A stretch of 64,000 nt of DNA from Hydrogenobacter sp. (GTDB lineage Bacteria > Aquificota > Aquificia > Aquificales > Aquificaceae): NCBI GenBank assembly GCA_041287335.1, contig JBEULM010000047.1:23445-87444 (forward strand), written 5' to 3'. Every line of letters begins with the position of its first letter. The first letter of the stretch is position 1. A program made the translations under genes and the position numbers. The notes below the pieces were generated by a model. That model did not search any database. It was not told the DNA's origin and saw only the letters and a list, made by a program, of their open reading frames with translations. Of the stretch, positions 25,439-26,372 are shown piece after piece.

Positions 25439-25869
25439 GCTTTTACCTCCAGAAGTTGAGTCTTTTGCGCTTGATGAGGATGCTCTGAGCCTGCATAAAC
25501 TTTTAATCTCTTTAGCATCCTGTGTCCAAGTTTGTTTTTGGGAAGCATCCTCTTGACGGCAAGCGTTATAACTTCTTCAGGTTTATTCTCTAACATCCAC
25601 CCGAGTGACCGCTCCTTTATACCACCCGGATAGTTAGTGTGAAAGGCGTAAATCTTCTGCTTAGGTTTTTTACCTGTGACTTTTATCTTTCCTGCGTTTA
25701 ATACAACCACGAAATCTCCGCAATCTACATCAGGTTGGTAATAAGGTTTGTGCTTTCCCATTAGTATCTTAGCTATGTGTGAGGCAAGTCTTCCCAAGGT
25801 TTTCCCTTGAGCATCTACCACCCACCAAGTTCTCTCTACATTCTCAGGTTTTACCCTGTATGTCTTCAT
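25435..25869 (-). CDS. rplM: 50S ribosomal protein L13
   Basis: [33 protein letters not shown]. Confidence 0.97.
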
Positions 25870-25944
25870 CTCTCGGCTCCTTTTAACTTATTTGGGAATG
25901 TTATATTATAACCTTATCTTGGTAAAAAGGCAACAAAAAAATCC

Positions 25945-25973
25945 ATTTGACATAGCGGTTTACCTGCTCTAAG
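25945..25973 (+). promoter_or_regulatory. Putative sigma70 promoter of the rhodanese-like gene
   Basis: TTGACA, 17 nt, TAAGTT; followed by AAGGAGGT SD (boundaries approximate). Confidence 0.45.
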
Positions 25974-25998
25974 TTTCTCCTTATAAGGAGGTGTTAAA

Positions 25999-26319
25999 AT
26001 GATGGAGCCAGAAAGAATAAGTCCAGATCTTGCGCGCAAGAAGGTACTTTCTGGAGAAGCGTTACTCGTGTGTGCATACAGTGACGAGAGATGCAGGAGT
26101 CTAAAGCTTGAAGGGGCTATATTCCTGAGCCAGCTTGAAGCCCAACCATCGTTAGCACAAGGTAAAGAGATCATCTTTTACTGTGCGTGACCTCATGAAG
26201 CGACTTCTGCCCGTGTGGCAGCAACATATTTAGAGAGGGGTTACGAAAAGGTTAAGGTATTAAGTGGCGGTGTAGAAGGCTGGAAAAGAGCAGGCTATCC
26301 CTTAGAAACTTCCACTTGA
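25999..26319 (+). CDS. Rhodanese-like protein with in-frame TGA at codon 64 (probable selenoprotein), 106 aa
   Basis: Frame stays open for 42 codons past TGA 26188-26190: EIIFYCA-U-PHEATSARVAATYLERGYEKVKVLSGGVEGWKRAGYP, completing the rhodanese C-terminal signature. Confidence 0.8.
26202..26225 (+). promoter_or_regulatory. SECIS-like hairpin
   Basis: CTGCC-CGTGT-GGCAG (26207-26221) with G-containing loop starting 21 nt after the UGA. Confidence 0.5.
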
Positions 26320-26372
26320 ACCTTTTGTGTGTTAAACTTATACAGATTTAGCTTTTAAGAAGGAGGCAATGA

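Follow-up and report, generated by a model that had tools for sequence, protein, structure and literature searches.

We describe a predicted selenoprotein gene encoding a rhodanese in Hydrogenobacter sp. (assembly GCA_041287335.1, contig JBEULM010000047.1). The window, i.e. the whole stretch of DNA that was analysed, comprises 64,000 nucleotides, and all positions given below refer to it unless another contig is named. The gene lies on the plus strand between rplM-rpsI and tig-clpP, and the following features were assigned to it and to its upstream region.

25947..25975, plus strand: possible sigma-70-type promoter; TTGACA (25947-52), 17 nt spacer, TAAGTT as a weak -10 box
25986..25994, plus strand: Shine-Dalgarno sequence AAGGAGGTG, 4 nt upstream of the ATG, read from the sequence
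25999..26319, plus strand: predicted selenoprotein gene for a single-domain rhodanese; 106 codons including one predicted selenocysteine (Sec) codon, then the terminal TGA
26071..26073, plus strand: codon of Cys25 in the 'ALLVCAY' motif, near-invariant in the family (alignments A1, A3 and A4)
26182..26184, plus strand: codon of Cys62, aligned with the canonical catalytic Cys of YgaP, 6mxv and BH2092
26188..26190, plus strand: predicted Sec64 codon UGA; Cys or TGA in homologues, SECIS hairpin downstream, Sec machinery in the genome
26207..26221, plus strand: predicted SECIS hairpin CTGCC-CGTGT-GGCAG; stem 26207-26211/26217-26221, loop CGUGU 26212-26216 with the family-invariant G 26213

The short open reading frame (25999-26190) starts with the ATG at 25999 and is closed by TGA 26188-26190 directly after ...EIIFYCA. 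Downstream of this TGA the same frame stays open for 42 more codons (PHEATSARVAATYLERGYEKVKVLSGGVEGWKRAGYPLETST) up to the final TGA 26317-26319, as stated in an earlier reading made from the letters of the window (the sequence-only reading) and borne out by direct inspection. The 106-aa read-through product matched the Pfam family Rhodanese (PF00581) over residues 37-97 with 34.5 bits, which is above the gathering threshold of 22.2 bits used as the cut-off. We interpret 25999-26319 as a single, intact gene whose product is a cytoplasmic rhodanese of 106 residues and one domain. In this reading, to which we assign a probability of roughly 0.9, UGA 26188-90 is recoded as Sec. Gene callers would truncate the protein because the in-frame UGA is taken for a stop but is almost certainly read as Sec; the gene had indeed been expected to be annotated as truncated, and public collections store it as a 63-aa call.

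The strong Shine-Dalgarno sequence claimed for the gene was found at 25986-25994. Of the plausible promoter, the TTGACA box is perfect; TAAGTT agrees with the -10 consensus at only three of six positions and the TTGACA-17 nt-TAAGTT candidate failed a consensus scan, so that the promoter has to be regarded as weak. A search of RNA runs did not find the gene in any RNA-seq run.

Homologues, fold and active-site loop

A homologue search of 5.8 billion proteins yielded three types of relatives, namely full-length Cys forms, calls of 63-67 aa, and full-length Trp forms. The full-length Cys forms carry FYCACP[NAH][ED], with a Cys aligned to the UGA of the window's gene; many of the 63-67-aa calls terminate precisely at ...IIFYCA; and the Trp at this site in P0007 and P0009 stems from gene calls made with TGA read as W. 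A check of the residue that homologues have at the TGA codon, proposed along with the earlier reading, thus returned Cys (TGT or TGC) or TGA, with P0005 (L198:995-1321) as the sole Trp exception. P0005 has a true TGG at the Sec position (S-G-W-P), and its first Cys, the equivalent of Cys62, is replaced by Ser. Since the first Cys is also lost, P0005 was taken as a diverged or inactive copy and not as a refutation; it is probably catalytically dead or repurposed.

A DNA pattern scan across metagenome contigs recovered the arrangement E-I-I-F-Y-C-A-TGA-P on at least 120 contigs. Among the 80 loci listed from the C-A-TGA-P scan, 76 distinct sequences run past the TGA into a conserved C-terminal half (consensus U-P-x-[ED]-x-[ST]-[SA]-A...G[FY]xN.K.L.GGV.AW..AGY), i.e. 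the in-frame UGA is followed by a conserved open frame, and judged by these sequences the C-A-TGA-P pattern is far beyond chance. Five loci (L027:181-498, L194:698-, L195:14-, L196:802- and L197:81-) have TGA at both motif positions (FY-U-[A/N]-U), 6 nt apart, and a single downstream hairpin at the usual place; this U-x-U form is absent from the catalogue table of PMC13188914. The C-x-C, C-x-U and U-x-U variants occupy the same two columns. A profile search of 1.84 billion representatives matched 19 proteins at E<=1e-30 and 1358 at E<=1e-10. In L077, a Sec-form relative, an internal deletion takes most of the C-terminal half past U-P-S, which probably makes this copy a genuine pseudogene of the family.

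An AlphaFold model built with a 78-sequence alignment has a confident rhodanese fold (pLDDT 87.6, pTM 0.82), with a strand at residues 57-61 (EIIFY), a loop at 62-67 and a helix at 68-79. It shows the alpha/beta fold, the loop after the central strand beginning with a Cys, and Foldseek matched it to BH2092, YgaP, GlpE and many other rhodanese domains with TM scores of 0.65-0.76. Together with the Pfam match above threshold, the model agrees with the earlier claim that the continued frame completes a rhodanese fold. Cys25 lies at the end of strand beta-1 in the AlphaFold secondary structure.

The best structural match was BH2092 of Bacillus halodurans (PDB 3nhv and 3o3w), a rhodanese from structural genomics (Foldseek E 7e-6; TM 0.68-0.75 for the top-listed chains). 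It aligns with the window protein ungapped through the active-site loop (Y-C-W-G-P-A-C-N-G against Y-C-A-U-P-H-E-A-T) and therefore has the same two-residue-longer loop. BH2092 differs in lacking Sec, in having its second Cys five residues past the first instead of two, and in an overall identity of only about 25%. The rhodanese domains of E. coli GlpE and YgaP (PDB 1gmx, 2mrm and 5hbl) resemble the window protein in fold, in size and in the catalytic Cys straight after the central strand, but have a six-residue loop with a single Cys and no Sec, and YgaP is anchored in the membrane.

The TGA had been placed in the catalytic loop, two residues after a Cys, and profile alignments to solved rhodaneses agree. 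The phmmer and profile alignments pair Cys62 with the catalytic Cys in YgaP and in 6mxv, and U64-P65 appears as a two-residue insertion, i.e. Sec64 follows two residues past Cys62 in a loop two residues longer than that of classic rhodaneses. Cys62 is invariant in alignments A1 and A3 and conserved to at least 90% in A4. Among 50 representatives of the wider family it is almost always kept, and the residue found at position 64 is Cys, Ser, Gly, Asp or Sec (the last called as W). Because position 62 is near-constant and position 64 variable in these representatives, Cys62 is, on the aligned sequences, the canonical catalytic residue and the predicted Sec64 its partner.

The roles of the two residues could also be reversed in a true selenoprotein, with Sec64 as the nucleophile, U-P-H-E-A-T as a classic six-residue loop, and Cys62 as an accessory residue at the strand end. 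We consider this unlikely, because the alignments to YgaP, 6mxv and BH2092 all place Cys62 on the catalytic Cys, the strand of the AlphaFold model ends at Tyr61, and where a family member has lost either position, it is Cys62 that remains (C-D-S, C-A-S, C-D-G) and not position 64. The spacing is nevertheless suggestive: 17 residues separate Sec64 from the conserved Gly81, as they do the catalytic Cys from the equivalent Gly in the family consensus of GlpE-type rhodaneses, and the loop would end in Thr, like that of bovine rhodanese. In Cys/Sec redox motifs, moreover, the attack is usually made by Sec.

With Cys62 as the catalytic residue and Sec64 as its partner, the two would act as a redox pair, for which the series of C-x-C, C-x-U and U-x-U forms also argues. 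One of them might accept sulfane sulfur, or selenium, from a donor, and the other would resolve the intermediate via a selenenylsulfide bond. The protein would then be a sulfur/selenium carrier or a reductase rather than a plain thiosulfate:cyanide transferase.

SECIS hairpin, Sec machinery and the in-frame TGA

The hairpin CTGCC-CGTGT-GGCAG proposed by the sequence-only reading is real, but its distance had been given as 21 nt; the stem starts 16 nt past the A of the UGA (19 nt past the U). For a comparative analysis, the region downstream of the TGA was aligned without gaps in the 76 distinct TGA-form sequences (alignment A2). A helix of seven pairs (columns 24-30/36-42) enclosing a 5-nt loop is 87.6% paired in A2, whereas sliding the 3' partners by 1-3 columns reduces pairing to 26-52%. 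In 68 cells of the helix both sides have changed. On four of five measures no shuffle out of 500 reached the observed value, and on the fifth (pairs changed on both sides) one did. RNAalifold independently recovered the helix at the same columns.

Pair 27-39 joins two synonymous third-codon positions (UA:49, CG:19, UG:5), and in A2 a G always occupies the second position of the loop while its codon varies between Gly, Arg and Ser; covariation and invariant G point to constraints at the RNA level. Across the 76 distinct TGA copies the hairpin has 5-7 bp at a fixed distance from the UGA. A scan of genome contigs with Cys codons in the pattern, which returned only Cys forms, served as the negative control: in 15 Cys-form homologues from genomes (Planctomycetota, Methylomirabilota, Burkholderiales and others), the positions of the A2 helix are 46% paired and there is no common hairpin. 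The bacterial-SECIS geometry claimed for the element is thus supported by covariation in the TGA forms and by the missing hairpin in the Cys forms, and the element is a stem-loop a short way downstream whose apical loop has a conserved G. A single-sequence fold (z = -1.8) also joined the UGA region to 26237-26245 in a long lower helix; this helix was discarded, since it is not conserved in the 76-sequence alignment.

The 5-bp hairpin of the window with its CGUGU loop has a predicted stability of -1.6 to -2.9 kcal/mol at 70 C, similar to that predicted for the SECIS of the host selD (6 bp, GGC loop, starting 12 nt past its UGA; -2.25 kcal/mol at 70 C). At 70-80 C only marginal stability is predicted for the stem, and the selD hairpin fares no better.

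The window's own genome (1.67 Mb in 64 contigs) was searched for the Sec machinery, whose presence had been named as a check. It encodes selB (445 bits; cut-off 242), selA directly downstream of selB (574 bits), selD with one in-frame TGA (308 bits), and one tRNA-Sec with the anticodon TCA, so that all four components occur within one genome. The selD gene (genome G000, contig C8:30404, outside the window) has its in-frame TGA within SG-U-AAKVGP and the hairpin downstream of it; the in-frame TGA indicates that the host selenophosphate synthetase is itself a selenoprotein. Further selB genes were found in four of the five other genomes of the genus that were sampled (five of six when the window's own is counted) and in 21 of the 41 genomes of the family, a distribution which implies that the host lineage decodes Sec. 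SelB carrying Sec-tRNA(Sec) would bind the mRNA hairpin at 26207-26221 as the ribosome arrives at the UGA 16 nt upstream, a recoding step that is standard in bacterial Sec biology.

Both the geometry of the hairpin with its conserved loop G and its resemblance to the element of the host selD speak against the view that a near-cognate tRNA inserts a standard amino acid such as Trp or Cys at the UGA and that the hairpin merely slows termination. Termination at a UGA with a C after it is leaky, and P0005 has a real Trp codon at the site, but the missing Cys62 of that copy deprives the example of weight. Homologues align Cys, the usual counterpart of Sec, and in the U-x-U forms such leaky decoding of two UGAs that lie 6 nt from each other would be very inefficient. 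We regard such read-through as very improbable.

Over 25950-26350, contigs assembled from four public runs of hot-spring metagenomes match the window without any difference, at depths of 5-42x, and the 63-aa call is present on 18 contigs from several samples, all in the rpsI-rplM / tig-clpP context. The concern that the TGA might be a read error is thereby settled: TGA 26188-90 occurs in contigs of four independent runs and on the 18 contigs, and is real. A second haplotype was found in three of the seven contigs examined (L187, L189 and L192). Upstream of the TGA it differs by seven substitutions, all of them synonymous; downstream of the TGA it differs by six, four synonymous and two conservative (T75I and R79K), which is the pattern of a translated region and not of a dead 3' remnant. 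The 5-bp stem and the loop are unchanged, and the synonymous substitution 26205 T>G costs no more than the optional outer pair 26205-26223. Between rplM and the rhodanese gene, the second haplotype has an indel and several substitutions within 25869-25935, and it keeps the TTGACA box and the Shine-Dalgarno sequence.

That the gene is a pseudogene, i.e. a C-x-C rhodanese cut to 63 residues by a TGT/TGC-to-TGA nonsense mutation and with a decaying 3' frame, is the least credible explanation, because the single step from a Cys codon to TGA, the public gene calls ending at 63 aa and the internal deletion in L077 are outweighed by the same TGA in at least 120 contigs, a 3' frame open and conserved in 76 distinct sequences, a covarying hairpin specific to the TGA forms, an intact frame in which the changes past the TGA within the species are 4 synonymous : 2 conservative, and a full Sec machinery in the genome.

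Relation to catalogued families and origin of the gene

The first prediction of rhodanese selenoproteins with a C-x-U motif came from bSECISearch (Zhang & Gladyshev 2005, cited in PMC13188914 and PMC9312934), and they are listed in reviews as the predicted selenoprotein family 'Rhodanese-like form 3 / COG0607 form 2, CxU' (PMC9312934; PMC13188914). The window protein has the features that define the CxU form there, a single-domain rhodanese (COG0607/PF00581) and C-x-U. The kind is therefore already catalogued as a predicted family and the gene is an added member, which makes the observation correct, yet no new discovery.

Among curated models, NF041203 ('rhodanese_LYCAU, rhodanese-related (seleno)protein') was the top NCBIfam match of the window protein and of all 78 clade members. 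Like NF041203, the window protein is a single-domain rhodanese of the PspE/GlpE type with [L/F]-Y-C-A-U, the Sec lying two residues past the loop Cys, and it carries the motif as FYCAU. Membership in NF041203 was nevertheless rejected, since the window protein scores 65.6 bits, as high as ordinary Cys rhodaneses of the phylum do, against the curated cut-off of 115. The cut-off was reached by none of the 78 clade members and by none of 48 representatives of the wider family; the best E-values were 2.3e-24 for a clade member (n=78) and 1.7e-16 for a wider-family representative (n=48). Only positions 53-125 of the 126 in the model align to the window protein, and the N-terminal half with the conserved Cys of ALLVCAY is specific to the clade, unlike NF041203. 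By domain and motif the clade is a sister group to NF041203, with an N-terminal half of its own.

TsoB (NF045694, UxxxxU), a selenoprotein resembling a rhodanese/DsbD fusion, also has a rhodanese domain with Sec in the active-site loop. It is a fusion protein of 572 residues with two Sec residues spaced x4, and the match of the window protein to NF045694 is weak (21 bits; cut-off 805 bits).

The value of the finding lies chiefly in annotation, and it opens no new kind of system. Public collections keep the gene and well over 100 relatives as 63-residue fragments or as Trp mistranslations under code 4. Since the clade falls below the cut-off of NF041203, annotation pipelines miss it, and they will keep overlooking such genes because NF041203 is the sole curated model of a CxU rhodanese. 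One selenoprotein is added to the small known selenoproteome of a thermophile lineage, which is of modest biological value. The natural series of C-x-C, C-x-U and U-x-U forms offers a ready system for studying the contribution of selenium in the rhodanese loop.

A search with the window protein in 60 relatives (genus, family and order) yielded no true homologue. A scan of 178 genomes of the phylum with NF041203 returned only ordinary rhodaneses, an in-frame TGA occurring solely in the window's gene among the matches listed, and the gene was not detected in the 177 other genomes. One rhodanese match flagged with a TGA, in a genome of the same order (L019), proved to be an ordinary CRSGNRS rhodanese with the TGA as its stop. 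In relatives from the genus (L046-L054), DNA matches to the window end at 25936 on the rplM side and restart at 26325 on the tig side. The missing match over 25937-26324 means that a 388-bp stretch, comprising the gene and its 5' region, is unique to the species and sits at a synteny breakpoint: rplM-rpsI and tig-clpP are on different contigs or about 166 kb apart in the genus relatives and adjacent only in the window's species. The gene thus lies exactly at the rplM-rpsI / tig-clpP rearrangement junction. Its G + C content is 47%, compared to 41.3% for the genome.

The lack of homologues in relatives, the absence of the 388-bp stretch from the genus relatives and the G + C content above that of the genome suggest that the gene was probably gained horizontally by a host that already decoded Sec. 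Such a transfer would be a clean case of a selenoprotein gene and its SECIS element moving jointly into a Sec-competent host. In a broader and tentative interpretation, 'ALLVCAY...EIIFYC-x-[C/U]-P' would mark a distinct selenoprotein family outside the curated models, in which a Cys25-Cys62-Sec64 relay in the enlarged loop reduces a sulfur or selenium compound via a selenenylsulfide in place of classic sulfur transfer, and which was horizontally gained by a hot-spring thermophile for its sulfur/selenium metabolism; taken as a whole, this is conceivable but doubtful.

An all-against-all BLAST of the gene neighbours at 81 metagenome loci found no neighbour family in more than five loci. The earlier description of the gene as stand-alone is consistent with these 81 neighbourhoods without common neighbours, and the context accordingly gives no functional hint. 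Hydrophobic or signal-like N-terminal extensions, which the window protein does not have, are present in L068/L135, L089, L099 and L144, and part of the family may, to judge from these extensions, be exported. The metagenome contigs L102, L105, L106 and L140 encode fusion proteins of about 464 aa in total, in which the Sec-rhodanese continues in frame into a C-terminal domain of roughly 350 residues that bears the patatin-like motifs GGGxxG and GTSAG.
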